A DNA stretch of 64,000 bases from Eledone cirrhosa (lineage: Eukaryota): contig OZ024740.1 in assembly GCA_964016885.1 (NCBI GenBank), positions 330,274,001 to 330,338,000 of the forward strand, in the 5' to 3' direction. The translations under genes were made by a program, and so were the position numbers. A model generated the notes under the pieces. That model saw nothing but the letters and a program-made list of their open reading frames with translations, had not been told where the DNA came from and ran no database searches. The first letter of the stretch is position 1. Every line of letters starts with the position of its first letter. Positions 28,886 through 58,745 of the stretch are shown piece by piece.

Positions 28886-28913
28886 ACATACACACAGCAG
28901 ACACACACACACA

Positions 28914-31900
28914 CAACTGCCCATAAGTGTTGAGGGCAAACGCCCGAAATGCTTCCGCTGTGGATCGAAGACTCACCTCAGGGCCTTCTGCAACGAGAAG
29001 ACCCTGAGAAAGGAGAAAACCCCCCTCCTTCTGAAACCGGCTCCACGGCTACCAGCAACAGCACAAGCGGCAACCAGGAAATCAAAAACAGCAGCAGCAG
29101 TGGAAGTATAAACAACAACAACAGCAATACCAAATGCAGCTGCAACAGAGACTCCAGTGCAAACATCACCAACAACAAGTGAAAGAGTGGAGCTGGTACC
29201 CCTCCCCGACCTCACAGAATCAGACATGGAGTGTGAGGTGGGAGAGGGATGGCAAAAGGTTGTAAGAAGGCACAAACGCAGAAGCAGCGCATCGGCGCCT
29301 TTGAAAAGGGAGGAAAGAAATGAAAAAAGGGTAAAGGCTACTGCAAAGAGACTCACAGCAGCAACACCACCAACACCATCACCACCCACACTAGCACCAC
29401 CATCACCACCGGCGACAACCCCACCGCCAACAACACCTTCAACACCACCACCACAAGCACCAACATCGCAAGCACAACAACAAAACACACACATCCAGCA
29501 ACAACGACAAGAAAATAGCAGCCCCCCCCCCCCGAAAAACAAATGCACGGCAATAAATACACACAACAAGAAACTAATGACTTACATAATTGAACACACA
29601 GACATTTCACAACACGACTACATAATACCAGCACCAATCAAAACGCCAACTAACATAAGACTGCTAAAAATAGCACAGAAACAATACACAAACATTAAAA
29701 CGAAATTCCCCAACGCAGTTGGTGAATTCAGAGACCTAGGAGGGACACTCAACCGAAGAGTATATTCAGACATACTCATAGAAGAGCCGACGACCAGCCG
29801 GAGGAACGATTCAACGGTCTCTTCACCAGACGATCAAGTGAAAAGGGATGGAAAAACCATCCCTCCTCTACGAAGAGTACGGTAAGTGGTCTTTCCCACC
29901 CTTTCCACTCTATTTTAAACATGACCTCACTCAGAATAGGCAGCATAAATGCGCGTGGCTTGGGGTCGTCATGGAAGTAGGGCCACCTGCTCAACGACCT
30001 CAGGTCACTAAACATAGATGGAGTGGCCATCAGCGAGACCAGAATCACCGAAGCACGGGCCTTCGCACCGATCTTCGGCGGCTACGAGTGTAAGCAACTA
30101 CCAGCCGTCCTGGATCGGGGGGAGAAGTTGCTGTGCTTTTTCGAAGAAGTTTGGATCTCGCCATACGGGCCATCTTCCTGGACCCAGAGGGTAAGTTGGT
30201 GGTGCTGGACGTGACCAGCGGAGACGAGCAAGCTTTCAGGCTAGTGGCCGTCTATGCCCCGACAGGAGCAGGGTGGCCTGATTTCTTCCGGCGTCTGGAG
30301 ACCTTTCTTGGAACGTCCCGCTCTTTAGAGTTAGTGGGCGACTGGAACGGGATCTTAGATGCACGATGGGACTGTGTGGGATTAGCGGATAGGGGTGGAG
30401 GGTGCAAGAGCCTCACCAACCTGCTCAGGCGTTTTGAACTGTCTGACTGGTACCGATTGGGTTTCCCGAATGTGCCAATGTGGACTTGGACAAATCGTAT
30501 AGGGTCATCCAGATCATATCTAGATAGAGTATTTTGTAGGGAAATAGATAGGTCTAGCATAGGCTGTCCACAATTCAAGATAGTCAGCTACACGGACCAC
30601 AAATTCGTGATCTGTGTGCTTGACTTAGATAGGCTTCATAGACGAGGACCCGGCTACTGGAAGCTAAACGCGTCCTTACCAGCGCACAATGCCTACAGAG
30701 ACCGGATTAGCGAACTAGTTAAGCAGGCGTTGACGCGGGCCATCGTCAACAGCAGGTGGTGGTTTGCTCTGAAAAGAACGATTAGAATAGAATCCATTAG
30801 GTTTAGTACGGCTTTAGCAATAGAGAAAAATAGAGCAGAGGGAGAACTAGTTAGAAAATTAGACGAGGCGCTTAGCAAAGGCATTGCGACCGACGTGCTA
30901 GCGGCGAAATTGGCCCTTGACCAATTCTTCAATGCAAAGCACGAAGGCTGCGTTGTCAGACCAAGGGTGCGTGCTCTCAGACACGAGGGGACGAAAGCCG
31001 TTCAATGGGCCCGAGTGGCGGAGGCGCGTCGTGGCAACAAAGTCATGATCCGGTCTTTGGTGGACCATGACGGGCGCATGCTACTCGATCCCGGGCAAAC
31101 GTGTGAAGCTTTTCAGCGACACTTTACTCAGCTGTTCGGGGGCAGCGGTGGGCCGGGTCGAGGGATGGACTTTAGTGTCTACCTCGACGGACTGCCGCGG
31201 CTCTCGGCCACTGAGGCGAAGTGTTGCGAAAAGCCGATAACAGCCGCTGAAGTAAGGGAGGCAATGACTGGCTGCACAAGGGGTAAATCGCCTGGTTTGG
31301 ATAGTCTGCCCTATGAACTTTACGTACAGATGCCAGACTTGTTCGGAGGCCTCTTGGCGGACGTCTACTGCAACTGGCAACAGAACGGGATAATTCCCAG
31401 TTCTGTGAGCCGAGGAGCGGTGGCACTGCTGAGAAAGGATCCGAACAAGGGGGATAACATAGATAATTTCCGGCCCAAAACTCTGCTAAACACAGAGTTC
31501 AAGATTTTGGCCAAGGTGCTAACAAAGAGGTTGGCGCTTGTCGTTGGTGGTCTGGTGGAAGAGGCGCAGACATCCGCCATTCCCGACAGATCCATCCACG
31601 ACAACCTCCACCACATGCGATACATCGTAGAGAGGGTAGCTAGGGAACCTCGCACGGGTGAGTGCTTGATAAATTTAGATCAGTCGAAAGCTTTCGATAG
31701 GGTCGACCATCGTTACCTAGCGGCAGTCCTGAGGGCGGCTGGCTTTGGGCCCGTCTTCAGAGGCTGGATGGCTGCCATGCACAGCGACTTCTGCTCTGTG
31801 GTGAGAGTGAACGGTCACCTGTCGGAACCGTTCAACATCATGCGCTCGGTCCGCCAAGGATGTCCCCTCTCGTCCCTTTTGTACGTTTTGACTCTCGAGC

Positions 31901-32826
31901 CATTACTGCACATACTGGAGAGGTTGAGGGGCGTCCCGCGCGAACTAGGATGCGGAAGATCCGTGTCAGCATATGCGGACGATGTCACCATAGTGGTGTC
32001 GAACGCCAAACACATCGAGGTGATCGGGACTACACTAAGAGAATACGAAGCGGTGACAGGAGCAATGATCAACCAGGAAAAGTCAGTGGGCCTGCAGCTC
32101 GGCACCTGGAGAGGCAGGTCCATGCCGCCTAACAGCGTCGTCGGACGCTGGACGGTGGACCGGTTAAATTGCCAGAAATGGGCGGAGAGGAAGCTATCCC
32201 TGAAAGGTCGAGCGGAGGTGGCTAACGCGTACATCGCGTCTGTCATCTGCTACCGCCTGACCGTCGTACCTTGTCCTAAGCCTCGCCTGACTGCGCTGGA
32301 GCGTTTGCTCTTTCGCTTTTTGTGGAAGGGACGCGCTCCGATGGTCAGGGGGTCCATCTGTTGTCAACACCCGCTACGTGGAGGGCTGGGCATGCCGTGG
32401 CTGATGATTCGTAGGCACACGCTCAGGCTACGACATCTCCACCTCTTCCTCGACGGTGATCAGGTGTGGTCACCGTTTGCGAGACACGTATTTCCCCAGC
32501 TCGTTTCCTTGGCGGAGCTGCAGTCCTGGGTCAAGCGAAGACCGAGAGGGAGCGCCTGGAGACTGGAATGTCTTCAGGCGCTCACAGCCCCCGACCAATC
32601 GGGCAATGTGATCGGCGGAAACTCCACCTCGGCGTTCTATAGAGGATTAGTGGAGGGGAAGAGCGACGACGTACTTGGGGAAACTCTAGGCGTCGACAAA
32701 AATCAACTAGCCAATCTCTTCGGAAGAACTTTCGGCCCATTTGTACCGTCCTGTATTGTCCTGCACTGTCCTTAATGTCTACTTTATGTAAACACTTGTG
32801 GTTAATAAAGAAATCATTATTATTAA
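28914..32826 (+). mobile_element. Tx1/L1-clade LINE copy 1 (5'-truncated, defective; type A ORF1)
   Basis: Starts inside ORF1 just before the CCHC knuckle. ORF2 (ATG 29921) has a TAG at ~29978, a frameshift at ~30090, a deletion at ~32170 and a ~700 bp deletion at ~32737 that jumps to the 3'UTR. Ends aataaagaaatc(att)n. Confidence 0.95.
29921..32740 (+). pseudogene. ORF2 (APE endonuclease-RT) of copy 1, disrupted
   Basis: VAVYAP, GDWN, SYLD, TDH (APE); LDQSKAFD, RQGCPLS, YADD (RT). Confidence 0.95.
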
Positions 32827-33154
32827 TATTTGTTGAAAGATGGGTGAGAGAAGCAAGTATGGCCCGAATGAATGGGCCTTCTCTGAGTATGTGTCTGTAA
32901 ATTAAAGGTGGAAAACTGGGAGAGGGCACTTGCCCTGGTGGTCAGGGCCACTGTGGTCTTTTAATGGGCTTTCTCCACAAATGTCCCTCGGAAGTCACCC
33001 CCCTATTGAGGAATTTTTCTTTGTTATTTTATTTCAACCTCTGTTTTTTTACACGCAGAGATGCCCATTTGTACCGTCCTGTATTGTCCTGTACTGTCCT
33101 TAATGTCTACTTTATGTAAACCCTTGTGGTTAATAAAGAAAACATTATTATTAA

Positions 33155-33183
<29 letters not shown>
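32827..33183 (+). mobile_element. Tx1 copy 1b: ~350 bp 5'-truncated 3' end of the type B subfamily
   Basis: Matches 53622-53957, including diagnostic gcaagtatggcccgaatgaatgggcctt and aaagaaaacatt. Begins directly after the (att)n tail of copy 1. Confidence 0.95.
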
Positions 33184-33185
<2 letters not shown>

Positions 33186-33207
33186 AATTAAATAATAATA
33201 AAGAAAT

Positions 33208-35990: not shown

Positions 35991-36179
35991 TTATTATTAT
36001 TATTATTATTTTTAACCGTTAAAACAATTGTAAATTGTTTAAAACTTGAACCAAATTGTTGATAAAGACACCCTCCTCCTCGTGAGAGGGGTCTTTCTGT
36101 CCGTTATTTGGCCCTTCGGGGTTAAATAATCAGTTATTGGGGTTTTGTACCCAAAATTTCATTTTAAACAAAAAACAAC

Positions 36180-38277
36180 ATGGCTACGAAAAAGAAATTT
36201 CATACGTCACTCCCACTCATTCCGTCTTCTTCTTCCTCAATCATCACTACAGCAGAGAGAAGATTGTCTCTCTCCCTCCCTTCTTTAAATGTGTCTCTCT
36301 CCCTCCCTTCTCTTTCGCAAGTGACGAAAGAAAAGAAAAGTCTCGTGCAAAGCGTGCAAGGTTTCTCCACGACGACGACGACAGCGACGAAACAGGTGTG
36401 CGGGAAATACGAAAACCCAGTTCATTCGTCTGACGTCAGGAATAATAGCAGTAGCAGCCGTAATAACAACAGCAACAGTGACAATGAAAACAACAGTAGC
36501 AGCCGCAACAGCATCACCAGCAGCATAAACAACAACAGCATTAGCAGCAGCAACACCAACAACAACCACAGCAACAGCGGCGGAGGCAGTAGTCGTAGTA
36601 CCTGCAACAACAACAAAAGTACCAGCAGCTCTGACGACAACAACAACAGCAGAGAAAAACCAATCTCATTTGCAGGTATTGCGAAAAACTTGGAAACAAT
36701 CCTCATAACAAATGAGGAATTAGAGGAAGCGAAGAAGATGGTGACAAAGAACGGACACCGAGCAATCTGCAAGGCAGCGAAAATTTTTTTCGAAACCCAA
36801 GAGCACTGTACGGTCACGTACCGTACAGTAAGTACAAAATCCCGTAGGGTGGAAAGAGCCACAGAGGCCCAAATACAAAAAGCCTTGGGGTCTGTGTGGC
36901 AGCGGAAAACGCACATCACCCGAGGCAAAAAATATGCCACCGTAGACGTACTTTTTGCCACACCCCAGGAGGCAAAGGCCCAATCAGTAGTGACCCTAAG
37001 GAGCGAGGAAATGGTGTTGGTGCCCTCCTACTGTGGGCAAAAAATTGTGAGGGTCAAACTGACCCACGTCCCCCCCCGGAATGACCCCTTCTTGGCTGGC
37101 CGCGTCTGTCCTCGTCGGAATCGAGGACAAAACAATTGTACTGCAAGTACAGAAAAAAGTAAGAGAAGATTGGGTCGGCTCCTCCATTGAGATGCTAATC
37201 CAAACCAACCAGGAGTGCATCGAAGCTATCCCGGATGTGATAGACTTCTATAACGGCACTCAACTGCACATAAGTGTTGAGGGCAAACGCCCGAAATGCT
37301 TTCGCTGTGGATCGAAGACTCACCTCAGGGCCTTCTGCAACGAGAAGACCCTGAGAAAGGAGAAAACCCCCCTCCTTCCGAATCCGGCTCCACGGCTACC
37401 AGCAACAGGACAAGCGGCAACCAGGAACGATAGGCCCGTGGCACCCATACCCACTCCACGGAAATCAAAAACAGCAGCAGCAGTGGAAATACTAACAACA
37501 ACAACAGCAATACCAAATGCAGCTGCAACAGAGACTCCAGTGCAAACATCACCAACAACAACAAGTGAAAGAGTGGAGTTGGTACCCCTCCCCGACCTCA
37601 CAGAATCAGACATGGAGTGTGAGGTGGGAGAGAGATGGCAAAAGGTCGTAAGAAGGCACAAACGCAGAAGCAGCGCATCGTCGCCTTTGAAAAGGGAGGA
37701 AAGAAATGAGAAAAGGGTAAAGTCTACTGCAAAGAGACCCACAGCAGCAACAACACCAACACCATCACCACCCACACTAGCGCCACCATCACCACCGGCG
37801 ACAACCCCACCACCAACAACACCTTCAACACCACCACCACAAGCACCAACATCGCAAACACAACAACAAAATACACACACCCAGCAACAACGACAAGAAA
37901 ATAGCAGAACCACACCCCACCCCCAGAAAAACAAATGCACGGCAATAAACACACACAACAAGAAACTAATGACTTACATAATTGAACACACAGACATTTC
38001 ACAACAGGACTACATAATACCAGCACCAATCAAAACGCCAACTAACATAAGACTGCTAAAAATAGCACAGAAACAATACACAAACATTAAAACGAAATTC
38101 CCCAACGCAGTTGGTGATTTCAGGGACCAAGGAGGAACCATTAATCGAAGAGTATATTCAGACATTCTCTTAGAAGAGCCGACGACCAGCCGAAGGGACG
38201 ATTCAACGGTCCCTTCACCAGACGATCAAGTGAAAAGGGATGTAAAAACCATCCCTCCTCTACCAAAAGTACGGTAA
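36180..38277 (+). pseudogene. ORF1 type A of copy 2, +1 frameshift
   Basis: A C8 run at ~37070-37077 (C7 in copy 3) splits it into ORFs 36180-37190 and 37081-38277. Knuckle CFRCGSKTHLRAFC is present. Confidence 0.9.
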
Positions 38278-38312
38278 GTGGTCTTTCCCATCTTTTCCAC
38301 TCTATTTTAAAC

Positions 38313-41300
38313 ATGACCTCACTCAGAATAGGCAGCATAAATGCGCGTGGCTTGGGGTCGTCATGGAAGCAGGGTCACCTGCTCAACGACCTCAGGTCAC
38401 TAAACATAGATGTAGTGGCCATCAGCGAGACCAGAATCTCCGAAGCACGGGCCTTCGCACCGATCTTCGGCGGCTACGATGTGTACGCATCTCCCAGCCG
38501 TCCTGGATCGGGTGGAGGAGTTGCTGTGCTTTTTCGGAGAGGTTTGGATCTCGCCATACGGGCCATCTTCCTGGACCCAGAGGGTAAGCTGGTGGTGCTG
38601 GACGTGACCAGCGGAGACGGGCAAGCTTTCAGGCTAGTGGCCGTCTATGCCCCGACAGGAGCAGGGCGGCCTGATTTCTTCCGGCGTCTGGAGACCTTTC
38701 TTGGAACGTCCCGCTCTTTAGTGTTAGTGGGCGACTGGAACGGGATCTTAGATGCACGCTGGGACTGTGTGGGATTAGCGGATAGGGGTGGAGGGTGCAA
38801 GAGCCTCACCAACCTGCTCAGGCGTTTTGAACTGTCTGACAGGTACCGATTGGATTTCCCGAATGTGCCAATGTGGACTTGGACAAACCGCATAGGGTCA
38901 TCCAGATCATATCTAGATAGAGTATTTTGTAGGGAAATAGATAGGTCTAGCATAGGCTGTCCACAATTCAAGATAGTCAGCTACACGGACCACAAATTCG
39001 TGACCTGTGTGCTTGACTTAGATAGACTTCATAGACGAGGACCCGGCTACTGGAAGCAAAACGCGTCCTTACCAGCGCGCAAGGCCTACAGAGACCAGAT
39101 TAGCGAACTAGTTAAGCGGGCGTTGACGGGGGCCATCGTCAACAACAAGTGGTGGTTTGCTCTGAAAAGAGCGATTAGAATAGAATCGATTAGATTTAGT
39201 AAGGCTTTAGCAATAGAGAAAAATAGAGCAGAGGGAGAACTAGTTAGAAAATTAGACGAGGCGCTTAGCAAAGGCATTGCGACCGACGTGCTTGCGGCGA
39301 AATTGGCCCTTGACCAATTCTTCAATGCAAAGCACGAAGGCTGCGTTGTCAGAGCTAGGGTGCGTGCTCTCAGACACGAGGGGACGAAAGCCGTTCAATG
39401 GGCCCGAGTGGCGGAGGCGCGTCGTGGCAACAAAGCCACGATCCGGTCTTTGGTGGACCTCGACGGGCGCATGCTACTCGATCCCGGGCAAATGTGTGAA
39501 GCTTTTCAGCGACACTTCGCTCAGCTGTTCGGGGGCAGCGGGGGGCCGGGTAGAGGGATGGACTTTAGTGTCTACCTCGACGGACTGCCGCGGCTCTCGG
39601 CCACTGAGGCGAAGTGTTGCGAAAAGCCGATAACAGCCGCTGAAGTACGGGAGGCAATGACTGGCTGCACAAGGGGTAAATCGCCTGGTTTGGATGGTCT
39701 GCCCTATGAACTTTACGTACAGATGCCAGACTTGTTCGGAGGCCTCTTGGCGGACGTCTACTGCAACTGGCAACAGAACGGGAGAATTCCCAGTTCTGTG
39801 AGCCGAGGAGCGGTGGCACTGCTGAGAAAGGATCCGAACAAGGGGGATAACATAGACAATTTCCGGCCCATAACTCTGCTAAACACAGAGTTTAAGATTT
39901 TGGCCAAGGTGCTAGCAAAGAGGTTGGCGCTTGTCGTTGGTGGTCTGGTGGGAGAGGCGCAGACGTGCGCCATTCCCGACAGATCCATCCACGACAACCT
40001 CCACCTCATGCGATACATCGTAGAGAGGGTAGCTAGGGAACCTGGCACGGGTGGGTCCTTGATCAATTTAGATCAGTCGAAAGCTTTCGATAGGGTCGAC
40101 CATCGTTACCTAGCGGCAGTCCTGAGGGCGGCTGGCTTTGGGCCCGTCTTCAGAGGCTGGATCGCTGCCATGCACAGCGACATCTGCTCTGTAGTGAGAG
40201 TGAACGGTCACCTGTCGGAACCGTTCAACATCATGCGCTCGGTCCGCCAAGGATGTCCCCTCTCGTCCCTCTTGTACGTATTGACTCTCGAGCCATTACT
40301 GCACAAACTGGAGACGTTGAGGGGAGTCCCGCGCGAACTAGGATGCGGAAGATCCGTGTCAGCATATGCGGACGATGTCACCGTAGTGGTGTCGAACGCC
40401 AAACACATCGAGGCGATCGGCACTACACTAAGAGAATACGAAGCGGTGACAGGAGCAATGATCAACCAGGAAAAGTCAGTGGGCCTGCAGCTCGGCACCT
40501 GGAGAGGCAGGTCCATGCCGTCCAACAGCGTCGTCGGGCGCTGGACGGACGGACCGGTTAAATTGCTAGGGGTCTGGTTCGGTCCGGACCTCCAGACGGA
40601 CAAAAACTGGGACGAGGTGACGAGCAGGGTGGCTTCTCTCACCCAGAAATGGGCGGAGAGGAAGCTATCCCTGAAAGGTCGAGCGGAGGTGGCTAACGCG
40701 TACATCGCGTCTGTCATCTGCTACCGCCTAACCGTCGTACCTTGTCCTAAGCCTCGCCTGACTGCGCTGGAGCGTTTGCTCTTTCGCTTTTTGTGGAAGG
40801 GACGTGCTCCGATGGCCAGGCGGTCCATCTGTTGTCAACACCCGCTACGTGGAGGGCTGGGCATGCCGTGGCTGATGATGCGCAGGCACGCGCTCAGGCT
40901 ACGACATCTCCACCTCTTCCTCGACGGTGATCAGGTGTGGTCGCCGTTTGCTAGACGCGTTTTTCCCCAGCTCGTTTCCTTGACGGAGCTGCAGTCCTGG
41001 GTCAAGCGAAGACCGAGAGGGAGCGCCCGGAGACTGGAATGTCTTCAGGCGCTCACAGCCCTCGACCAATCGGGCAATGTGATCGGTGGAAACTCCACCT
41101 CGGCGTTCTATAGAGGATTAGTGGAGGGGAAGAGCGACGACGTACTTGGGGAAACTCTAGGCGTCGACGAAAATCAACTAGCCAATCTCTTCGGAAGGAC
41201 TTTCGGGCCAGGGCCTATGGACAACTTCCAGAAATCTCTGGCCTGGCAGTGCTACCGAGGAGCCTTGCCAGTTCGGGATAAACTCTACAGGCATGGAGGT

Positions 41301-41732
41301 GCCGTCAGCCGGGCATGTCCGAGATGCGCGCAGGGCGACGAAACCGTCCTGCACGCACTCGTCCAGTGTCCGAAAATTGCTGACTTGTGGGTTTATGTCG
41401 AACACCTGCTGTCGCGTTTAGGACGGATCCAGCTATCATCTGAGTCTATCGTGAGGATTGCCCCGCCCTCCTCCTTTAGCCGGGAAGGGCAGGCAGTTTT
41501 TATCCGTCTGGTGGCCATGGCGAAAGAGATAGTATGGTGGACACGTTTGAAAGGGCTGAAGACGAGCACTTACCTCTTCGGTGATGCTCTGATTGACTTT
41601 TTCAAATTTCATTTGAAAAGGAAAATCAGAGTAGAGAAGGAAGTGCTCTCTTCCCAGCATTTTGTTGAAAGATGGGTGAGAGAAGCAAGAATGGCCCGAG
41701 TGAATGGGCCGACTCTGAGTATATATCTGTAA
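38313..41732 (+). CDS. ORF2p: APE endonuclease, reverse transcriptase, C-terminal zinc finger (1139 aa, intact)
   Basis: SINARG, SET, GDWN, YLD, TDH; KSPGLDG, FRPITLLN, QGCPLS, YADD; CPRC..ETVLH....C. Confidence 0.97.
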   Translation: MTSLRIGSINARGLGSSWKQGHLLNDLRSLNIDVVAISETRISEARAFAPIFGGYDVYASPSRPGSGGGVAVLFRRGLDLAIRAIFLDPEGKLVVLDVTSGDGQAFRLVAVYAPTGAGRPDFFRRLETFLGTSRSLVLVGDWNGILDARWDCVGLADRGGGCKSLTNLLRRFELSDRYRLDFPNVPMWTWTNRIGSSRSYLDRVFCREIDRSSIGCPQFKIVSYTDHKFVTCVLDLDRLHRRGPGYWKQNASLPARKAYRDQISELVKRALTGAIVNNKWWFALKRAIRIESIRFSKALAIEKNRAEGELVRKLDEALSKGIATDVLAAKLALDQFFNAKHEGCVVRARVRALRHEGTKAVQWARVAEARRGNKATIRSLVDLDGRMLLDPGQMCEAFQRHFAQLFGGSGGPGRGMDFSVYLDGLPRLSATEAKCCEKPITAAEVREAMTGCTRGKSPGLDGLPYELYVQMPDLFGGLLADVYCNWQQNGRIPSSVSRGAVALLRKDPNKGDNIDNFRPITLLNTEFKILAKVLAKRLALVVGGLVGEAQTCAIPDRSIHDNLHLMRYIVERVAREPGTGGSLINLDQSKAFDRVDHRYLAAVLRAAGFGPVFRGWIAAMHSDICSVVRVNGHLSEPFNIMRSVRQGCPLSSLLYVLTLEPLLHKLETLRGVPRELGCGRSVSAYADDVTVVVSNAKHIEAIGTTLREYEAVTGAMINQEKSVGLQLGTWRGRSMPSNSVVGRWTDGPVKLLGVWFGPDLQTDKNWDEVTSRVASLTQKWAERKLSLKGRAEVANAYIASVICYRLTVVPCPKPRLTALERLLFRFLWKGRAPMARRSICCQHPLRGGLGMPWLMMRRHALRLRHLHLFLDGDQVWSPFARRVFPQLVSLTELQSWVKRRPRGSARRLECLQALTALDQSGNVIGGNSTSAFYRGLVEGKSDDVLGETLGVDENQLANLFGRTFGPGPMDNFQKSLAWQCYRGALPVRDKLYRHGGAVSRACPRCAQGDETVLHALVQCPKIADLWVYVEHLLSRLGRIQLSSESIVRIAPPSSFSREGQAVFIRLVAMAKEIVWWTRLKGLKTSTYLFGDALIDFFKFHLKRKIRVEKEVLSSQHFVERWVREARMARVNGPTLSIYL

Positions 41733-42228
41733 ACTAAAGGTGGAAAACTGGGAGAGGGCACTTGCCTTGGTGGTCAGGGTCATTGTGGCATTTTACTGGG
41801 CTTTCTCCACAAATGTCCCTCCGAAGTCTCCGCCCTATTGGGGAATTTTTCATTGTTATTTTCATTGTTATTTTTGTTACATCCTCTGTTTTTGTTTTTT
41901 TACACGCAGAAATGCCCATTTGTACCGTCCTGCATTGTCCTGCACTGTCCTTAATGTCTACTTTATGTAAACCCTTGTGGTTAATAAAGAAATCATTATT
42001 ATTATTATTATTATTGAATGCCATGGTTGACGGAGGCTCGGCTCTGTAAGGTATAGTAATTTTTAACCGTTAAAACAATTGTAAATTGTTTAAAACTTGA
42101 ACCAAATTGTTGATAAAGACACCCTCCTCCTCGTGAGAGGGGTCTTTCTGTCCGTTATTTGGCCCTTCGGGGTTAAATAGCCAGTTATTGGGGTTTTGTA
42201 CCCAAAATTTCATTTTAAACAAAAAAAC

Positions 42229-44322
42229 ATGGCTACCAAAAAAAAAAAATTTCATACGTCACTCCCACTCATTCCGTCTTCTTCTTCCTCAATCATCACT
42301 ACAGGAGAGAGAAGATTGTCTCTCTCCCTCCCTTCTTTAAATGTGTCTCTCTCCCTACCTTCTCTTTCGCAAGCGACGAAAGAAAAGAAAAGTCTCGTGC
42401 AAAGCGTGCAAGGTTTCTCCACGACGACGACGACAGCGACGAAACAGGTGTGCGGGAAATACGAAAACCCAGTTCATTCGTCTGACGTCAGGAATAATAG
42501 CAGTAACAGCCGTAATAACAACAGCAACAGTGACAATGAAAACAACAGTAGCAGCCGCAACAGCATCACCAGCAGCATAAACAACAACAGCATTAGCAGC
42601 AGCAACACCAACAACAACCACAGCAACAGCGGCGGAGGCAGTAGTCGTAGTACCTGCAGCAACAACAAAAGTACCAGCAGCTCTGACGACAACAACAACA
42701 GCAGAGAAAAACCAATCTCATTTGCAGGTATTGCGAAAAACCTGGAAACAATCCTCATAACAAATGAGGAATTAGAGGAAGCGAAGAAGATGGTGACAAA
42801 GAACGGACACCGAGCAATCTGCAAGGCAGCGAAAAATTTTTTCGAAACCCAAGAGCACTGTACGGTCACGTACCGTACAGTAAGTACAAAATCCCGTAGG
42901 GTGGAAAGAGCCACAGAGGCCCAAATACAAAAAGCCTTGGGGTCTGTGTGGCAGAGGAAAACGCACATCACCCGAGGCAAAAAATACGCCACCGTAGACG
43001 TACTTTTTGCCACACCCCAGGAGGCAAAGGCCCAATCAGTAGTGACCCTAAGGAGCGAGGAAATGGTGTTGGTGCCCTCCTACTGCGGGCAAAAAATTGT
43101 GAGGGTCAAACTGACCCACGTCCCCCCCGGAATGACCCCTTCTTGGCTGGCCGCGTCTGTCCTCGTCGGAATCGAGGACAAAACAACTGTACTGCAAGTA
43201 CAGAAAAAAGTAAGAGAAGATTGGGTCGGCTCCTCCATTGAGATGCTAATCCAAACCAACCAGGAGTGCATCGAAGCTATCCCGGATGTGATAGACTTCG
43301 ATAACGGCACTCAACTGCCCATAAGTGTTGAGGGCAAACGCCCGAAATGCTTTCGCTGTGGATCGAAGACTCACCTCAGGGCCTTCTGCAACGAGAAGAC
43401 CCTGAGAAAGGAGAAAACCCCCCTCCTCCCGAATCCGGTTCCACGGCTACCAGCAACAGGACAAGCGGCAACCAGGAACGATAGGTCCGTGGCACCCATA
43501 CCCACTCCACGGAAATCAAAGACAGCAGCAGCAGTGGAAATATTAACAACAACAACAGCAATACCAAATGCAGCTGCAACAGAGACTCCAGTGCAAACAT
43601 CACCAACAACAACAAGTGAAAGAGTGGAGCTGGTACCCCTCCCCGACCTTACAGAATCAGACATGGAGTGTGAGGTGGGAGAGGGATGGCAAAAGGTCTC
43701 AAGAAGGCACAAACGCAGAAGCAGCGCATCGTCGCCTTTGAAAAGGGAGGAAAGAAATGAGAAAAGGGTAAAGTCTACTGCAAAGAGACCCACAGCAGCA
43801 ACACCACCAACACCATCACCACCCACACCAGCACCACCATCACCACCGGCGACAACCCCACCGCCAACAACACCTTCAACACCACAAGCACCAACATCGC
43901 AAACACAACAACAAAACACACACACCCAGCAACAACGACAAGAAAATAGCAGAACCACACCCCACCCCCAGAAAAACAAATGCACGGCAATAAACACACA
44001 CAACAAGAAACTAATGACTTACATAATTGAACACACAGACATTTCACAACAGGACTACATAATACCAGCACCAATCAAAACGCCAACTAACATAAGACTG
44101 CTAAAAATAGCACAGAAACAATACACAAACATTAAAACGAAATTCCCCAACGCAGTTGGTGATTTCAGGGACCTAGGAGGAACCATTAATCGAAGAGTAT
44201 ATTCAGACATTCTCTTAGAAGAGCCGACGACCAGCCGAAGGGACGATTCAACGGTCCCTTCACCAGACGATCAAGTGAAAAGGGATGTAAAAACCATCCC
44301 TCCTCTACCAAAAATACGGTAA
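42229..44322 (+). CDS. ORF1p type A (N/S-rich N-terminus, RRM-like core, CCHC knuckle, P/T-rich linker, conserved C-terminal domain), intact
   Basis: Open frame from ATG 42229 (MATKKKKF) with CX2CX4HX4C. Confidence 0.93.
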   Translation: MATKKKKFHTSLPLIPSSSSSIITTGERRLSLSLPSLNVSLSLPSLSQATKEKKSLVQSVQGFSTTTTTATKQVCGKYENPVHSSDVRNNSSNSRNNNSNSDNENNSSSRNSITSSINNNSISSSNTNNNHSNSGGGSSRSTCSNNKSTSSSDDNNNSREKPISFAGIAKNLETILITNEELEEAKKMVTKNGHRAICKAAKNFFETQEHCTVTYRTVSTKSRRVERATEAQIQKALGSVWQRKTHITRGKKYATVDVLFATPQEAKAQSVVTLRSEEMVLVPSYCGQKIVRVKLTHVPPGMTPSWLAASVLVGIEDKTTVLQVQKKVREDWVGSSIEMLIQTNQECIEAIPDVIDFDNGTQLPISVEGKRPKCFRCGSKTHLRAFCNEKTLRKEKTPLLPNPVPRLPATGQAATRNDRSVAPIPTPRKSKTAAAVEILTTTTAIPNAAATETPVQTSPTTTSERVELVPLPDLTESDMECEVGEGWQKVSRRHKRRSSASSPLKREERNEKRVKSTAKRPTAATPPTPSPPTPAPPSPPATTPPPTTPSTPQAPTSQTQQQNTHTQQQRQENSRTTPHPQKNKCTAINTHNKKLMTYIIEHTDISQQDYIIPAPIKTPTNIRLLKIAQKQYTNIKTKFPNAVGDFRDLGGTINRRVYSDILLEEPTTSRRDDSTVPSPDDQVKRDVKTIPPLPKIR

Positions 44323-44357
44323 GTGGTCTTTCCCATCTTTTCCACTCTATTTTAAAC

Positions 44358-47300
44358 ATGACCTCACTCAGAATAGGCAGCATAAATGCGCGTGGCTTGG
44401 GGTCGTCATGGAAGCAGGGTCACCTGCTCAACGACCTCAGGTCACTAAACATAGATGTAGTGGCCATCAGCGAGACCAGAATCTCCGAAGCACGGGCCTT
44501 CGCACCGATCTTCGGCGGCTACGATGTGTACGCATCTCCCAGCCGTCCTGGATCCGGTGGAGGAGTTGCTGTGCTTTTTCGGAGAGGTTTGGATCTCGCC
44601 ATACGGGCCATCTTCCTGGACCCAGAGGGTAAGCTGGTGGTGCTGGACGTGACCAGCGGAGACGGGCAAGCTTTCAGGCTAGTGGCCGTCTATGCCCCGA
44701 CAGGAGCAGGGCGGCCTGATTTCTTCCGGCGTCTGGAGACCTTTCTTGGAACGTCGCGCTCTTTAGTGTTAGTGGGCGACTGGAACGGGATCTTAGATGC
44801 ACGCTGGGACTGTGTGGGATTAGCGGATAGGGGTGGAGGGTGCAAGAGCCTCACCAACCTGCTCAGGCGTTTTGAACTGTCTGACAGGTACCGATTGGAT
44901 TTCCCGAATGTGCCAATGTGGACTTGGACAAACCGCATAGGGTCATCCAGATCATATCTAGATAGAGTATTTTGTAGGGAAATAGATAGGTCTAGCATAG
45001 GCTGTCCACAATTCAAGATAGTCAGCTACACAGACCACAAATTCGTGATCTGTGTGCTTGACTTAGATAGGCTTCATAGACGAGGACCCGGCTACTGGAA
45101 GCTAAACGCGTCCTTACCAGCGCGCAAGGCCTACAGAGACCGGATTAGCGAACTAGTTAAGCGGGCGTTGACGGGGGCCATCGTCAACAACAAGTGGTGG
45201 TTTGCTCTGAAAAGAGCGATTAGAATAGAATCGATTAGGTTTAGTAAGGCTTTAGCAATAGAGAAAAATAGAGCAGAGGGAGAACTAGTTAGAAAATTAG
45301 ACGAGGCGCTTAGCAAAGGCATTGCGACCGACGTGCTTGCGGCGAAATTGGCCCTTGACCAATTCTTCAATGCAAAGCACGAAGGCTGCGTTGTCAGAGC
45401 TAGGGTGCGTGCTCTCAGACACGAGGGGACGAAAGCCGTTCAATGGGCCCGAGTGGCGGAGGCGCGTCGTGGCAACAAAGCCACGATCCGGTCTTTGGTG
45501 GACCACGACGGGCGCATGCTACTCGATCCCGGGCAAATGTGTGAAGCTTTTCAGCGACACTTCGCTCAGCTGTTCGGGGGCAGCGGGGGGCCGGGTAGAG
45601 GGATGGACTTTAGTGTCTACCTCGACGGACTGCCGCGGCTCTCGGCCACTGAGGCGAAGTGTTGCGAAAAGCCGATAACAGCCGCTGAAGTAAGGGAGGC
45701 AATGACTGGCTGCACAAGGGGTAAATCGCCTGGTTTGGATGGTCTGCCCTATGAACTTTACGTACAGATGCCAGACTTGTTCGGAGGCCTCTTGGCGGAC
45801 GTCTACTGCAACTGGCAACAGAACGGGAGAATTCCCAGTTCTGTGAGCCGAGGAGCGGTGGCACTGCTGAGAAAGGATCCGAACAAGGGGGATAACATAG
45901 ACAATTTCCGGCCCATAACTCTGCTAAACACAGAGTTTAAGATTTTGGCCAAGGTGCTAGCAAAGAGGTTGGCGCTTGTCGTTGGTGGTCTGGTGGGAGA
46001 GGCGCAGACATGCGCCATTCCCGACAGATCCATCCACGACAACCTCCACCTCATGCGATACATCGTAGAGAAGGTAGCTAGGGAACCTGGCACGGGTGGG
46101 TCCTTGATCAATTTAGATCAGTCGAAAGCTTTCGATAGGGTCGACCATCGTTACCTAGCGGCAGTCCTGAGGGCGGCTGGCTTTGGGCCCGTCTTCAGAG
46201 GCTGGATCGCTGCCATGCACAGCGACATCTGCTCTGTGGTGAGAGTGAACGGTCACCTGTCGGAACCGTTCAACATCATGCGCTCGGTCCGCCAAGGATG
46301 TCCCCTCTCGTCCCTCTTGTACGTATAGACTCTCGAGCCATTACTGCACAAACTGGAGACGTTGAGGGGAGTCCCGCGCGAACTAGGATGCGGAAGATCC
46401 GTGTCAGCATATGCGGACGATGTCACCGTAGTGGTGTCGAACGCCAAACACATCGAGGCGATCGGCACTACACTAAGAGAATACGAAGCGGTGACAGGAG
46501 CAATGATCAACCAGGAAAAGTCAGTGGGCCTGCAGCTCGGCACCTGGAGAGGCAGGTCCATGCCGTCCAACAGCGTCGTCGGGCGCTGGACGGACGGACC
46601 GGTTAAATTGCTAGGGGTCTGGTTCGGTCCGGACCTCCAGACGGACAAAAACTGGGACGAGGTGACGAGCAGGGTGGCTTCTCTCACCCAGAAATGGGCG
46701 GAGAGGAAGCTATCCCTGAAAGGTCGAGCGGAGGTGGCTAACGCGTACATCGCGTCTGTCATCTGCTACCGCCTAACCGTCGTACCTTGTCCTAAGCCTC
46801 GCCTGACTGCGCTGGAGCGTTTGCTCTTTCGCTTTTTGTGGAAGGGACGTGCTCCGATGGTCAGGCGGTCCATCTGTTGTCAACACCCGCTACGTGGAGG
46901 GCTGGGCATGCCGTGGCTGATGATGCGCAGGCACGCGCTCAGGCTACGACATCTCCACCTCTTCCTCGACGGTGATCAGGTGTGGTCGCCGTTTGCTAGA
47001 CGCGTTTTTCCCCAGCTCGTTTCCTTGACGGAGCTGCAGTCCTGGGTCAAGCGAAGACCGAGAGGGAGCGCCTGGAGACTGGAATGTCTTCAGGCGCTCA
47101 CAGCCCTCGACCAATCGGGCAATGTGATCGGTGGAAACTCCACCTCGGCGTTCTATAGAGGATTAGTGGAGGGGAAGAGCGACGACGTACTTGGGGAAAC
47201 TCTAGGCGTCGACGAAAATCAACTAGCCAATCTCTTCGGAAGAACTTTCGGGCCGGGGCCTATGGACAACTTCCAGAAATCTCTGGCCTGGCAGTGCTAC

Positions 47301-47777
47301 CGAGGAGCCTTGCCAGTTCGGGATAAACTCTACAGGCATGGAGGTGCCGTCAGCCGGGCATGTCCGAGATGCGCGCAGGGCGACGAAACCGTCCTGCACG
47401 CACTCGTCCAGTGTCCGAAAATTGCTGACTTGTGGGTTTATGTCGAACACCTGCTGTCGCGTTTAGGACGGATCCAGCTATCATCTGAGTCCATCGTGAG
47501 GATTGCCCCGCCCTCCTCCTTTAGCCGGGAAGGGCAGGCAGTTTTTATCTGTCTGGTGGCCATGGCGAAAGAGATAGTATGGTGGACACGTTTGAAAGGG
47601 CTGAAGACGAGCACTTACCTCTTCGGTGATGCTCTGATTGACTTTTTCAAATTTCATTTGAAAAGGAAAATCAGAGTAGAGAGGGAAGTGCTCTCTTCCC
47701 AGCATTTTGTTGAAAGATGGGTGAGAGAAGCAAGAATGGCCCGAGTGAATGGGCCGACTCTGAGTATATATCTGTAA
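44358..47777 (+). pseudogene. ORF2 of copy 3 with a single premature TAG
   Basis: gtaTAGact at 46326-46328 versus gtaTTGact in copies 2 and 4. Otherwise collinear. Confidence 0.95.
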
Positions 47778-48037
47778 ACTAAAGGTGGAAAACTGGGAGA
47801 GGGCACTTGCCTTGGTGGTCAGGGTCATTGTGGCTTTTTACTGGGCTTTCTCCACAAATGTCCCTCCGAAGTCTCCCCCCTATTGGGGAATTTTTCATTG
47901 TTATTTTCATTGTTATTTTTGTTACATCCTCTGTTTTTGTTTTTTTACACGCAGAAATGCCCATTTGTACCGTCCTGCATTGTCCTGCACTGTCCTTAAT
48001 GTCTACTTTATGTAAACCCTTGTGGTTAATAAAGAAA

Positions 48038-48072
<35 letters not shown>

Positions 48073-48281
48073 GGCGACCTACGTAGAAAATCGTTTTATC
48101 GTGAGCTCCGCAAAGGTTTGTTATTTCCGTTTGTTTAAAAATTGCCATTTATGGAAAATTTCATTGTAAACTGTTTATAAGCACACATACATTGTTTTCC
48201 GAAAAGGACACCCAAAAAGATTGGGGCCTTGTGCCCAAAATTTTAACTTTTATTATTATCCAAAAATTTCTTTGAAAAAAA

Positions 48282-50240
48282 ATGGCTAATTCCCCTCTGC
48301 ACGAAGCAGCTGAAAGCCTTCCTCACAAAATAACACCTCACACCGACACCACCATTGTAAATGTTACTACGTTTGCCAACACAAAAAAAAATATAAGCAA
48401 TAGCAATATTTTAAATTTGTCTCAGGCAGACATTCATTTCCCGCCATTACCAATGACTGCAGGTGTTAAACCCTCCACCACCACCACCACCGCGACAACA
48501 GAAACAAAAGAAGAAAAAAATAAAGTAACTCGTGACGTCGAAATGAAATCAAGCAAAATGGACTCTTCCCCACCAAAGACGACTGACGTCAGCACCACCA
48601 CAACTGAAAATAAAATTAATATTAACGCTAGCAACAACAACAACAATGACATTATAAAACCGACCCTCAGTTTCGCCATCGTAGCAAAACAATTCGAAGC
48701 GTTCACGGTAACTCAAGAAGATTTAGAAAATGCCAAACGAATGGTAAAGAAAGATGGGTACAGGGTCAGCCTCACCCCCCCACCTAATAAAATGGAGCAT
48801 CGGCGCCTATGCACCGTGTCGTATAGAACAATAAATGTAAAATCGCGCCGAGTGGAACGGGCATCCGAGTCCCAAATCCCAAAAGCTTTGGGACATGTGT
48901 GGGCAAGAAAAACCCACATCAGACGTGGGCAAAAGTATGGAACCGTGGATGTGTTCTTTGAAACACCAGAGGAGGCTAGAGAACACTCCATGGTCCCATT
49001 AAAAAGTGACGACTTCACACTCGTCCCAAGCTATTGTGGCCAGAGACTCGTAAAGATCAGGGTGACCCACGTTCCACCGGCCATCGAAATTCCCTGGCTA
49101 ATAGCGGCTGTCATCGCCGGCATCGAGGCCAACACGAAAATAATAACAATAGCAAAAGAAAAGCAGGAAAACTGGTCCGGATCTGGGATGGAGCTCCTGA
49201 TCCAAGCGGACCAAAAAAGCATTGAGGAGATCCCAGAGGTAATAGACCTCACTGACGGCAGCCACCTCACGGTAATTGTCGAGGGCAGAAGACCTAGGTG
49301 TGTCGTTTGTGGTGAAGGAACCCACCTAAGGGCTTTCTGCCCTCAGGCTAAAAGGTTGAGGCCACCTCTCCTACCCACCCCAGTGACACAACCATCAACA
49401 CCACCAGTAGCAGAGATGCCAGCAACAACTGTAGCAGCAACAACAGAAGCAACTATAACAGCAACAACCCCAGCAACAGTAGCAAAACCAACACCACTAC
49501 CACCACCAGCAAAACCAACACCACCACCACCCAACGCTTCAGAACTCGCACCAGCGCCTACACCATCCACCACACCACAACCAAAACTAACGGCTGTGGA
49601 GGATTTTCCACTCCCCGGCCTATCACAACTGGAGACAGATTGTGACGACGAGGAGTGGGAAACGATATCCGGAAAAAAAAAAAGAAACCAAAAAAGAAAA
49701 AATTCTCTTCCTTCCCCCTCCAAAAACAAAATACAGAGGGAAACAAATAAACTAAGAAACAAAAAAGTTAGGACAGATATGCCACCATCCACACCAGCAT
49801 CACCAACCCCATCAACCCAAACACCAACACCATCACCATCATTAACTCCAACACCACCATCACCTACACCACAAAAGTCACCAAAATGCGAAACAGAAAC
49901 AAACCCACAACAAACGCAAACAAAACAAAACAACCAAAACGATACACACTACACAGCATTAAATTTGAACAACAAGCAATTATTGCACTACATCCAACAC
50001 AACACCAGCATCACAGAAAAAGACTACACAACAACCCCAAAATTCACACCACCTCCACACATACAAATCACTCGCATCACACAGAAAACGTACATGACAC
50101 TAAAACAAAAATTCCCCAAAGACATCGGAGACTTCCGACAAGCACTCTCCAGGAGGATTTATAAGGACATCCTTCCTGAGGAGGCCACAAGCAGTGAAAA
50201 GGATGGAAAAACCGTCCTTCCCCTACGAGAAGTAAGGTAA
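48282..50240 (+). CDS. ORF1p type B (652 aa), diverged homolog of type A
   Basis: Shares CTVxYRT..KSRRVERA, W.RKTHI.RG.KY.TVDV and LVPSYCGQ with type A. Knuckle CVVCGEGTHLRAFC. Confidence 0.95.
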   Translation: MANSPLHEAAESLPHKITPHTDTTIVNVTTFANTKKNISNSNILNLSQADIHFPPLPMTAGVKPSTTTTTATTETKEEKNKVTRDVEMKSSKMDSSPPKTTDVSTTTTENKININASNNNNNDIIKPTLSFAIVAKQFEAFTVTQEDLENAKRMVKKDGYRVSLTPPPNKMEHRRLCTVSYRTINVKSRRVERASESQIPKALGHVWARKTHIRRGQKYGTVDVFFETPEEAREHSMVPLKSDDFTLVPSYCGQRLVKIRVTHVPPAIEIPWLIAAVIAGIEANTKIITIAKEKQENWSGSGMELLIQADQKSIEEIPEVIDLTDGSHLTVIVEGRRPRCVVCGEGTHLRAFCPQAKRLRPPLLPTPVTQPSTPPVAEMPATTVAATTEATITATTPATVAKPTPLPPPAKPTPPPPNASELAPAPTPSTTPQPKLTAVEDFPLPGLSQLETDCDDEEWETISGKKKRNQKRKNSLPSPSKNKIQRETNKLRNKKVRTDMPPSTPASPTPSTQTPTPSPSLTPTPPSPTPQKSPKCETETNPQQTQTKQNNQNDTHYTALNLNNKQLLHYIQHNTSITEKDYTTTPKFTPPPHIQITRITQKTYMTLKQKFPKDIGDFRQALSRRIYKDILPEEATSSEKDGKTVLPLREVR

Positions 50241-50274
50241 GTGGTCTTTCCCATCTTTTCCACTCCTTTTCAAC

Positions 50275-53694: not shown

Positions 53695-54174
53695 ATTAAA
53701 GGTGGAAAACTGGGAGAGGGCACTTGCCCTGGTGGTCAGGGCCACTGTGGTCTTTTAATGGGCTTTCTCCACAAATGTCCCTTGGAAGTCTCCCCCCTAT
53801 TGGGGAATTTTTCTTTGTTATTTTATTTCAACCTCTGTTTTTTTACACGCAGAAATGCCCATTTGTACCGTCCTGTATTGTCCTGTACTGTCCTTAATGT
53901 CTACTTTATGTGAACCCTTGTGGTTAATAAAGAAAACATTATTATTATTATTATTATTTTTATTTTTTTTCATTATTGTTTCTGAGATATATGCCGAGTG
54001 TCTTCCTGATACATAGGGCAAAGAAATTCACAGTGTGCATTGGTAAGCCAGTTAATACAGCACACTGATTATAATAAAACAAAATAAAAACAGTATACAT
54101 ATAAACACTTGTGCATGTGCATATGTAAATACAAGGAGGGTTATCAATATTACAGAGATAGTGCTCTTCTCAAT

Positions 54175-55195
54175 TCACCTGGAATTTTGCCAGGCACTCA
54201 CTGCTCACTACCAATCGGGCAATGCGATCAGTTGAACTTCCACTCTTGAGTTCTATAGAGGATTAGTGGAGGGCAAGTGCGATGACGCACTCGGAGAAGT
54301 TTGGGCCTCGACGAAGTCGAACTGACCAGTCTGTACCGGAGGACTTTTGAGCCGGGGACGATGGACAATTTCCAGAAATCCCTCGCTTGGCAGTGCTACC
54401 GGCGGGCACCTCTGGTTCGGGATAAACTCTACGGGCACGGAAGTGCTGTCAGACGGAGCTGCCCAAGATGCGCACAGAACGACGAAACCGTTCTGCACGC
54501 ACTTGTCCCATGTCCGTGCATTACTGACTTGTGGAGTTATATCGAACAGCTACTGTCGCGTGTGGAACGAATCCGGCTATCGGCCGAGTCCATAGTGAAG
54601 ATCGATCCACCGCCTTCCTTAGGTCAGGAAGAGCAGGAAATTTTCCTCTGTCTGGTGGCAGTTGCGAAAGAGATTATATGGTGAACCAGGTTAAAAGGAC
54701 CTAAGACAGACACTTTTCTCTTCGGCCAATCCCTCATCAACTTCTTCAAGTTTCACCTGGAAAGGAAGGTGAGGGTGGAGAAAGAAGTGCTGCCCCCCAG
54801 TACATTTGCTAAAAGGTGGGTGAATGTGGCGAGAATGGCTCGTGTGAATGGGCCTACTCTGACCATGCGCCTATAGGCTAGCTAATTTGAGGAGAGGGGT
54901 GCTCTCCTTGGGTGCCCTAGAAGCGCAGGGTGGTTCGAGATTGGTGGGGTACCTGAAGCACCCCAGGGTCGTACACCCCCTATCGGGGAATTTATTTTGT
55001 TATATTTATGCATAGTTTATTTTATATTTTTATATTTTCATTGTTAAATTAGTCTTGCCATTGTGCACTTTGACTCGACCTTATTGTAAACCCCCACTGT
55101 CCCTGTCTTTGTATTGTCCACTACATGTCGGCCCTGGTGGCTAATAAATGAAATCATTATTATTATTATTACTATTGTTATTATTATCATTACTA
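54175..55195 (+). mobile_element. Diverged, 5'-truncated Tx1 relative (copy 5)
   Basis: MDNFQKSLAWQCY..CPRC..ETVLH is homologous to the ORF2 C-terminus, with stops. Its 3'UTR differs and ends gtggctaataaatgaaatc(att)n. Confidence 0.92.
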
Positions 55196-57160: not shown

Positions 57161-57309
57161 CTTATAGGCACCCGTTTTACGTGTGTTGTGTCGAGGCAAA
57201 TAACTATGTGTATACTCTGGTAATGTATCTTACATTGCCCAATGAGTGCGCTGAGATACAGTCGGTACTGACATTGATAAATATGGTGGGTCCGTCAACC
57301 CTTATTATA

Positions 57310-58745
57310 TATATATATATTAAAATATAGAGAAAAATACTGCAGGTAGCACATGGTAACATGTAATAAAATACGTCCCTCATCAGTGATTTGCCGAAGA
57401 TCATAGATATTTCATTGCATTAAAAATCATATATCTCACTTCGGTGCAATAATAACCAAAATAAGTTATTAGGACAATTAAAACGCGTAAAGCGAGTGAG
57501 ACAGGAGAACAACAGAAAAGATAGCATACCGTGGGAGAGAAACAAGCTTCAAAAATTATTCTGTTAGCGTAAGCTAGGTGAATATATGAGCGCTAGGGAA
57601 AGAATAGTCCAGCACGAACGAAGGTCATTGAGCAGAGAGAGAAAAAATAGCGTCCATGAGTGCAGGATGAAATGAAGAGAAGAGGGAGAAAAACAGTGAG
57701 TGAGTGAAAGTGTGAGGAAGAGTTAACGGACAAGACAGAGGGGGAGAAACAGAGAGAATGGGGGAACAGTAAGAGGGAGAGAAAAAACACAGAATCGCAG
57801 TGGTAAATATATGTATTAAAATATAGAGAAAAATACTGCAGGTAGCACATGGTAACATGTAATAAAATACGTCCCTCATCAGTGATTTGCCGAAGATCAT
57901 AGATATTTCATTGCATTAAAAATCATATATCTCACTATATATATATATATATATATATGTAATAAAATATAGAGAAAAATACTGCAGGTAGCACATGGAT
58001 AACATGTAATAAAATGAGTCCCTCATCAGTGATTTGCCGACGGTCATAGATATTTCATTGCATTAAAAATCACATACCTCACGTCGGTGCAATAATAACC
58101 AAAATAAGTTATTAGGACAATTGAAACGCGTAAAGCGAGTGAGAGAGGAGAACAACAAAGAGTATAGCTAACCGTAGGGGAAAGAAACAAGCTTCAACAA
58201 TTATTCTGTTTAGCATAAGCTAGGTGAACATATGAGCGCTTTTAGAACAGACCCGACACGAGCGAAGGCTATGTGAGAAGAGAGAAAAATAGCCTTCGTG
58301 GTGTACAGGTTGAAATGAAGAGAAGAGAAACAGTGAGTGAGTGAAAGTGTGAGGAAGAGTTAACTGAAATGACAGAGGGGGAGAAGCAGAGAGAAAGGGG
58401 GAACAGTAAGAGAGAGAGAGAAAAAAACACAGAATCGCAGTGGTAAATATATGTAATAAAATATAGAGAAAAATACTGCAGGTAGCACATGGATAACATG
58501 TAATAAAATGAGTCCCTCATCAGTGATTTGCCGACGATTATAGATATTTCATTGCATTAAAAATCATATACCTCACGTCGGTGCAATAATAACCAAAATA
58601 AGTTATTAGGACAATTGAAACGCGTAAAGCGAGTGAGAGAGGAGAACAACAAAGAGTATAGCTAACCGTAGGGGAAAGAAACAAGCTTCAAAAATTATTC
58701 TGTTTAGCATAAGCTAGGTGAATATATGAGCGCTGTTAGAACAGA
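57310..58745. repeat. Tandem repeat, ~495 bp unit, about 3 units
   Basis: aaaatatagagaaaaatactgcaggtagcacatgg recurs at ~57322, 57818, 57965 and 58459. Confidence 0.92.

Follow-up and report, generated by a model that had tools for sequence, protein, structure and literature searches.

Recombination that joins the ORF1 of one LINE lineage to the ORF2 of another has been described in several groups of elements. In the mouse, L1MdTf and L1MdGf combine the ORF2 body of one lineage with an ORF1 and 5' part taken from a second, and these recombinants were amplified as families (PMC3600994); in the horse, a single L1 recombination, located in mid-ORF2, is reported (PMC5872511). Among CR1/L2 elements, ORF1 is described as evolving reticulately, whole ORF1s moving between ORF2 lineages, for which a route by truncated insertion is proposed (Metcalfe and Casane 2014, PMC4120745), and such whole-ORF1 transfer is restated elsewhere (PMC13343379). 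Most of the evidence for LINE ORF1 shuffling comes from deep trees, and the recent recombinants on record belong largely to rodent L1 families. Within the Tx1 group, families that target microsatellites include Kibi at (TC)n, Koshi at (TTC)n and crocodilian families at (TTCC)n (PMC4494074), and ORF1 of type I, with one or more RRMs and a CCHC knuckle, is tied to Tx1 elements (PMC5203782). In O. vulgaris, 13 L1-Tx1 and 5 Dong-R4 families are reported to be recently active (PMC13282606). Here we describe two families of a Tx1-like element in the octopus Eledone cirrhosa, termed A and B, that differ almost solely in their 5'UTR and ORF1 and between which the junction is still readable.

Self-comparison of the window, the whole 64,000-nucleotide stretch that was analysed, revealed one element in four long copies, which lie between 28910 and 53970; a 3' fragment of a more distant family follows at 54179 (Table 1). 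Copy 4 is the sole copy in the window with both ORFs open, ORF1 of copy 2 being frameshifted at 37070 and ORF2 of copy 3 carrying a stop at 46326. The two internal deletions of copy 1 lie at 32172 and 32735-32738; the second, which leaves the (TTA)n tail in place, fuses ORF2 through a short common stretch to a 3'UTR reduced to its final ~90 nt. The 3'UTRs of type A (47778-48043) and type B (53695-53941) are distinguished by a 19-nt indel and linked substitutions, and the stub designated copy 1b has the B form, matching copy 4 at 241/247 and copy 3 at 230/266 positions. Copy 5 agrees with copy 4 at 163 of 232 amino acids (70%) and at 41 of 78 4-fold sites.

Table 1. Positions of the element copies and of their parts within the window.
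Feature	Position	Strand	Remarks
Copy 1, type A	28910..32825	+	5'-truncated, two internal deletions
Copy 1b, short 3' stub, B-form 3'UTR	32829..33183	+	within (TTA)n tail of copy 1
Copy 2, type A, full length	36008..42013	+	ORF1 frameshift near 37070; ORF2 38313-41732 open
Copy 3, type A, full length	42059..48070	+	ORF1 42229-44322 open; ORF2 44358-47777, TAG at 46326
Type A double tail (copy 3)	44232..44322	+	tail 1 with predicted hairpin 44237-44261; B-like tail from 44274
Copy 4, type B 5'UTR	48073..48281	+	directly 3' of the (TTA)10 tail of copy 3
Copy 4 ORF1-B, 652 aa	48282..50240	+	open
ORF1-B core	48657..49361	+	predicted tandem RRM-like domains and CX2CX4HX4C knuckle (49299-49340)
End of ORF1-B, 48 nt	50193..50240	+	opens block common to type A; predicted 8-bp hairpin 50199-50219
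Copy 4 inter-ORF spacer	50241..50274	+	predicted pairing with 50195-50213 around ORF1 stop
Copy 4 ORF2, 1,139 aa	50275..53694	+	APE + RT + zf-RVT, open
Copy 4 3'UTR (B form) and (TTA)n tail	53695..53956	+	
Copy 5, distant family, 3' part	54179..55171	+	5'-truncated, without ORF1

The Pfam domains Exo_endo_phos, RVT_1 and zf-RVT all score above their cut-offs in ORF2, which therefore combines, in L1 fashion, APE and RT with a zinc-binding domain at the C-terminus; among solved structures human L1 ORF2p is the nearest (E 1e-52), with R2 at E 5e-20. ORF1 has no match to the Pfam domain Transposase_22, and weak Pfam matches to MBD, which fell below the cut-off, were disregarded. A structure model of the ORF1-B core (pLDDT 90.5) found its top PDB matches among tandem RRM proteins (E 9e-5, at a TM of just ~0.3), and the CX2CX4HX4C knuckle can be read in both ORF1-A and ORF1-B. 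On the basis of its ORF2 domains, its RRM/CCHC ORF1 and its (TTA)n tails, the element is assigned as a Tx1-like LINE, and identity with mammalian L1 was rejected because its ORF1 is of the RRM and CCHC type. It resembles the published Kibi, Koshi and crocodilian Tx1 families in an APE-RT ORF2 nearest to L1 ORF2p, an RRM and CCHC ORF1 and an association with a microsatellite; it differs in that the repeat is (TTA)n, with a putative targeting that is seen in one window. The sole named close match to ORF2 is a short ORF2 fragment within an Octopus sinensis gene model.

The ORF2s of copies 2, 3 and 4 are each 3,420 nt long and align without gaps, as stated in an earlier note on this DNA, which had described copy 4 as differing from its neighbors in this ORF by substitutions only. 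Between copies 4 and 2, 1,097 of 1,139 amino acids are alike, with a dS of 0.097 and a dN of 0.017, and dS is flat over six segments (0.06-0.12). ORF1-A and ORF1-B, by contrast, share 40% amino acid identity overall and 122/227 residues in the core, where pS is 0.80 and synonymous sites are saturated. At 4-fold sites, 10 of 55 positions are alike in the ORF1 core versus 518 of 561 in ORF2 (Fisher p 6e-34). The two sides of the break thus have different histories, and the contrast in dS proposed in the earlier note as a check proved to be large, saturation in ORF1 standing against near-identity in ORF2. Between the type A copies 2 and 3, the two ORFs have diverged to a similar degree (2,056/2,101 columns alike in ORF1; ORF2 dS 0.013).

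The divergence of the two front halves is deep but has left traces of common descent. The ORF1 cores had been described as similar at the protein level only, which needs qualification: they also align as DNA, at 65% over 525 nt (E 4e-22). They are sisters, with support 96/98, in a tree of 17 rows comprising A, B and 15 of the 150 listed profile matches, picked for covering most of the core. The 5'UTRs, described as impossible to align, have indeed mostly diverged, yet a pairwise search detects a 24-nt motif common to both (21/24, E 2.7e-5), which identifies them as remote homologues and argues that an old paralogous module was moved, rather than a new promoter recruited. Recruitment of a new 5'UTR in the manner of mammalian L1, which the earlier note had invoked, is therefore not supported here, as the UTRs are homologous, the ORF1 core was replaced with them and that ORF1 is of the RRM and CCHC type. 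On these comparisons A and B share one ORF2 lineage under two long-diverged 5'UTR and ORF1 modules, and the modules themselves are, by the same alignments, old paralogues.

The branch that leads to copy 4 has accumulated 28 synonymous and 18 non-synonymous codon changes in ORF2, and the stem of copies 2 and 3 has 10 and 0 (p<1e-6 versus neutrality in each case); the 8 synonymous and 41 non-synonymous changes private to copy 1 represent neutral decay. Purifying selection has acted on ORF2 since A and B split. No mosaic signal was seen within ORF2, where informative sites divide 15 : 0 : 3 and a single tree holds along its length. This tree and the pattern of selection argue that the ORF2 of copy 4 was not taken from its neighbors, and hence that adjacency in the array did not make the chimera; help from adjacency had been suggested earlier, and is likewise not supported by the presence of both junctions in contigs of another study. 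With a calibration in which a distance of 0.09 equals 25 My (PMC13282606), 0.05 per lineage and an octopus host, the split would date very roughly to ~14 My ago or less.

A global alignment of copy 4 with type A, divided into bins of 100 columns, has 30-71 matches per bin as far as ~50197, then one bin with 88 and, from there on, 92-99, through ORF2 and into the start of the 3'UTR; the end bins are gap-rich, the first with 14 matches and the last with 71. The transition in identity is thus sharp and not gradual, as the earlier note had described. Common sequence begins at 50193 in copy 4, corresponding to 44274 in copy 3, so that the start formerly placed near 50194 stands; its abruptness has to be qualified, as the step has two stages. 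In the first, 50193-50240, copy 4 agrees with the A copies at 40-42 of 48 positions, which is far above the background of 50% (p<2e-6), below the 96.5% of ORF2 (p 0.0002-0.006) and compatible with the synonymous rate of ORF2 (p 0.06-0.26). A model with a single change-point puts the break at 50230-50240, preferring the stop codon over 50193.

The ORF1-A end is 14 codons longer than that of ORF1-B. The end of ORF1-B is colinear and in codon register with the first of two tails in A, at a background level of identity (18-20/39 nt, compared with 41-46/93 upstream), and the second tail of A matches B at 31-33/39 nt after 9 identical bases, which A reads in another frame than B because of one extra base. 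The ORF1 stop and the ORF2 start are 34-35 nt apart and do not overlap. ORF1 tails of outgroups vary in length and give no direction for a swap.

In copy 4 a predicted stem begins at the break and pairs with the inter-ORF spacer (z -3.57, equaled by 0 of 200 shuffles), in agreement with the breakpoint at an inter-ORF hairpin proposed in the earlier note. The best predicted fold of copies 4 and 1 is a longer stem that begins no more than 2 bases from the start of the common block and pairs with the spacer around the stop; in copies 2 and 3 local hairpins beat the long stem as the best predicted fold. The B tail and the second and first tails of A each have a predicted hairpin in the same register, which is poor in the first tail of copy 1 (-3.9 kcal/mol); the two hairpins of A have a common G-C pair where B has A-U. 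Two of the 8 hairpin pairs change on both sides, among 5 distinct rows, a weak sign of covariation that 37 of 500 shuffles equal. The UGGGA motif (TURBS motif 1) is absent from 50140-50280 and from 44180-44362. By its predicted pairing with the spacer, the 48-nt segment kept from B may have a role in translation of ORF2, and such a putative role would account for a surviving junction that falls within ORF1.

Twenty sequencing runs contain part of the region 42060-50600; they bear 16 organism labels, which are not taken as a host range, as relatives, mixed samples and carry-over look alike. RNA runs are not represented among the 20, which thus have no bearing on expression. Four runs were compared, those with small shares of the region being set aside: X1, of study P1, where X1-X3 possibly derive from the source sample and so are not independent; X6, of study P3; X10; and X14, in which only short pieces of low depth occur. 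In X6, a contig of 1,516 nt (depth 44.1) crosses from ORF1-A into ORF2 and reaches 74 nt beyond the junction, with 13 other letters and 6 gaps; a second, of 488 nt (depth 33.7), spans the B junction and extends 73 nt beyond it, with 5 other letters. Both junctions are therefore bridged in a separate study, which argues that A and B are real families rather than an artefact of assembly or of the array. At 50214 and 50222, two of the junction differences of copy 4, the B contig agrees with type A, so the families are closer at the junction than copy 4 suggests. ORF2 contigs of X6 have a depth of 74.5-82.4, approximately the sum of A and B; the same pattern occurs in X10 (7.0, 7.5 and 13.2 for A, B and ORF2), where the junctions are not bridged. 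Contig depth, which is not copy number, hints that A and B constitute most close copies. In X1, ORF2 depth (486k-1,014k) exceeds the sum of A (105k-249k) and B (82k-245k), so that truncated copies or further lineages exist. Among the 24 listed of 5,472 loose-end rows, none lies at the A or the B junction, and no third module was seen in them. Three A copies in the window, the two junctions in X6 and the deep coverage of each module in X1 show that the recombinant was amplified as a family.

That a 5'UTR and ORF1 module was swapped between lineages we regard as highly probable. The A module was likely grafted in a single event onto a B backbone, at a point where 48 nt of the B ORF1 remained. 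We infer a one-way transfer, with A as the graft, from its double tail, the first in codon register with B and the second B-like and out of frame. On the simplest reading, A would have retained its original ORF1 end and acquired from B the final 48 nt of ORF1 together with spacer, ORF2 and 3'UTR. The earlier note had postulated a recent exchange of whole promoter and ORF1 cassettes; the contrast in dS upholds the change of partners by a whole module, but with one ORF2 lineage in evidence, a reciprocal exchange is not supported. Template switching by RT generates chimeric retrocopies, and we think it reasonably probable that A arose by one such switch. During target-primed reverse transcription, RT would start on an RNA of the B lineage, copy ORF2, spacer and the hairpin at the ORF1 end, then switch, next to the homologous hairpin, to an RNA of the A-donor family, just 3' of that RNA's own hairpin. 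One extra base would restore the frame of the B-derived tail, the chimera would amplify as family A, and the kept 48 nt, with the predicted spacer stem, may serve ORF2 translation, by analogy with SART1 and calicivirus reinitiation.

The same chimera could have been made as DNA, by insertion of a 5'-truncated B copy with its ORF2 complete into, or its recombination with, the ORF1 end of a resident A-donor copy, the hybrid then being transcribed and amplified. Template switching and a DNA-level join have the same sequence product, so the double tail is expected of either; the DNA route has a published model (Metcalfe and Casane, PMC4120745), and both 5'-truncated copies (1, 1b and 5) and nested insertions are common in the window. 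We nevertheless consider it unlikely: the insertion would have to fall within a window of a few codons, and the junction is not in (TTA)n, which counts mildly against it given the frequency of that repeat at the 5' flanks. Quite unlikely, in our view, is a graft in the opposite direction, in which A would be the old partner of ORF2, with a tail duplicated long ago, and the B module would have joined at the second hairpin. The G-C pair common to the two hairpins of A and the predominance of A among ORF1-bearing copies of the window (3/4) would fit, but an additional ancient duplication of the tail is needed, and it is the B frame at the junction that fits the first tail of A, A reading the same 9 nt out of frame.

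Two further explanations dispense with a family-level recombination. Very fast evolution of ORF1 and 5'UTR, for instance in an arms race with the host, has precedent in mammalian L1 (PMC5872511, PMC5381506) but is scarcely credible here, as selection on protein cannot saturate 4-fold sites and as ORF1 and ORF2 diverge alike between copies 2 and 3. A local artefact, whether from chimeric assembly or from a single event in which neighbors converted the ORF2 of copy 4, is suggested by the adjoining copies and by the possible origin of X1-X3 from the source sample; it is rendered very improbable by the contigs of study P3, by an ORF2 in copy 4 that is no copy of its neighbors and has been under purifying selection, and by the B-form 3'UTR borne separately by stub 1b. 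Template switching onto the A-donor RNA stays our preferred reading. A broader model, based on the predicted stem, is unlikely: the functional ORF2 unit would start 48 nt inside ORF1, at an RNA stem by which ORF2 translation is coupled to termination of ORF1, the 5'UTR and ORF1 would be an exchangeable cassette, swaps would recur there and a new front half would open a new transcriptional or silencing niche, akin to the escape from host silencing that the earlier note raised as a possibility.

No donor of the A module, with ORF1-A on another ORF2, appeared in metagenome scans, in which the spacer motif yielded 0 matches and a two-row ORF1 alignment 598 pattern matches, of which 0 were confirmed. 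Word-index protein searches returned 0 of 7,994 candidates for ORF1-B and 0 of 871 for the ORF1-A core. An ORF1 profile search retrieved 538 relatives at E<=0.001, which come without genomic context; over at least 80 residues, identity among the 150 best of these does not rise above 42% to A or 48% to B. A more distant ORF2 lineage is represented by protein P0001, 79% identical to copy 4 and 73% to copy 5 and without ORF1; the lineage of copy 5 or of P0001 could be the native ORF2 of the donor. Host-like predicted proteins (P0075, P0100, P0116, P0149 and P0059) bear pieces of the element's ORF1 or ORF2, which may have been exonised or may reflect faulty gene models.

All six 3' ends (copies 1, 1b, 2, 3, 4 and 5) carry (TTA)n. 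Of the six 5' flanks in the window, three directly follow (TTA)n, one begins 45 nt after it and two are of other sequence; for comparison, the published definition of a target-specific Tx1 is that >20% of flanks genome-wide have a common target (PMC4494074). The array most likely arose as one copy after another inserted into (TTA)n; rather than the cause of the swap, it would be a by-product. The 45 nt at 42014-42058, between the (TTA)n tail of copy 2 and the 5' end of copy 3, are single-copy in the window and have no notable fold; this spacer may represent a 5' extension or an RNA that was captured. The microsatellite also holds, between copies 1b and 2 and in the opposite direction, an element of a different class that is truncated at its 5' end (33184-35990, minus strand; ORF 33318-35987). 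It has an RT, a C-terminal CCHC and a PD..D nuclease motif, and we take it to be an R4/Dong-like element. A tandem array with a period of ~640 nt, its sub-blocks 89-98% alike, lies at 57306-58746.

The kind of recombination is already known. The likeness to mouse L1MdTf and L1MdGf lies in a foreign ORF1 and 5' part on an ORF2 body, with recombinants amplified as families. There, however, breakpoints are within ORF2 and both parents are known, whereas here the join is inside the end of ORF1 with a doubled tail, and the two ORF1s, at 40% identity, have reached saturation at synonymous sites. The CR1/L2 cases were inferred from trees of distant groups; the present one is recent (dS 0.10), belongs to the L1/Tx1 group and has a junction defined at base level. 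Mammalian L1 lineages that recruit 5'UTRs are similar in that related backbones coexist under differing 5' ends, but those 5'UTRs are non-homologous and ~1.5 kb on average (PMC5381506), while the ones described here measure 170-209 nt, are remotely homologous and move with the whole ORF1. Signals for termination-reinitiation, namely calicivirus TURBS and the coupling in SART1, likewise involve structure at the ORF1 end near the ORF2 start (PMC5972666); in A and B the structure is predicted only, the UGGGA core is lacking and stop and start are separated by the spacer. No report of an ORF1 swap in a Tx1 or cephalopod element was found in the literature covered, Repbase, where the families may be listed, and most subscription journals being outside it, nor in the available parts of PMC9115989 and PMC11203168. 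What is distinctive is the deep divergence between the modules, the recency of the event and the readable doubled tail.

For annotation, the pair implies that family calls based on RT would merge A and B. Biologically, it makes testable the need for ORF1 and ORF2 to co-evolve and the place of the ORF2 translation signal, as well as whether different 5' ends permit families to coexist, an idea described as not yet experimentally validated (PMC5872511). If the cassette reading is true, ORF1s only 40% alike work with the same ORF2, and A and B would provide a naturally controlled test of ORF1-ORF2 compatibility and of the reasons why LINE families coexist.
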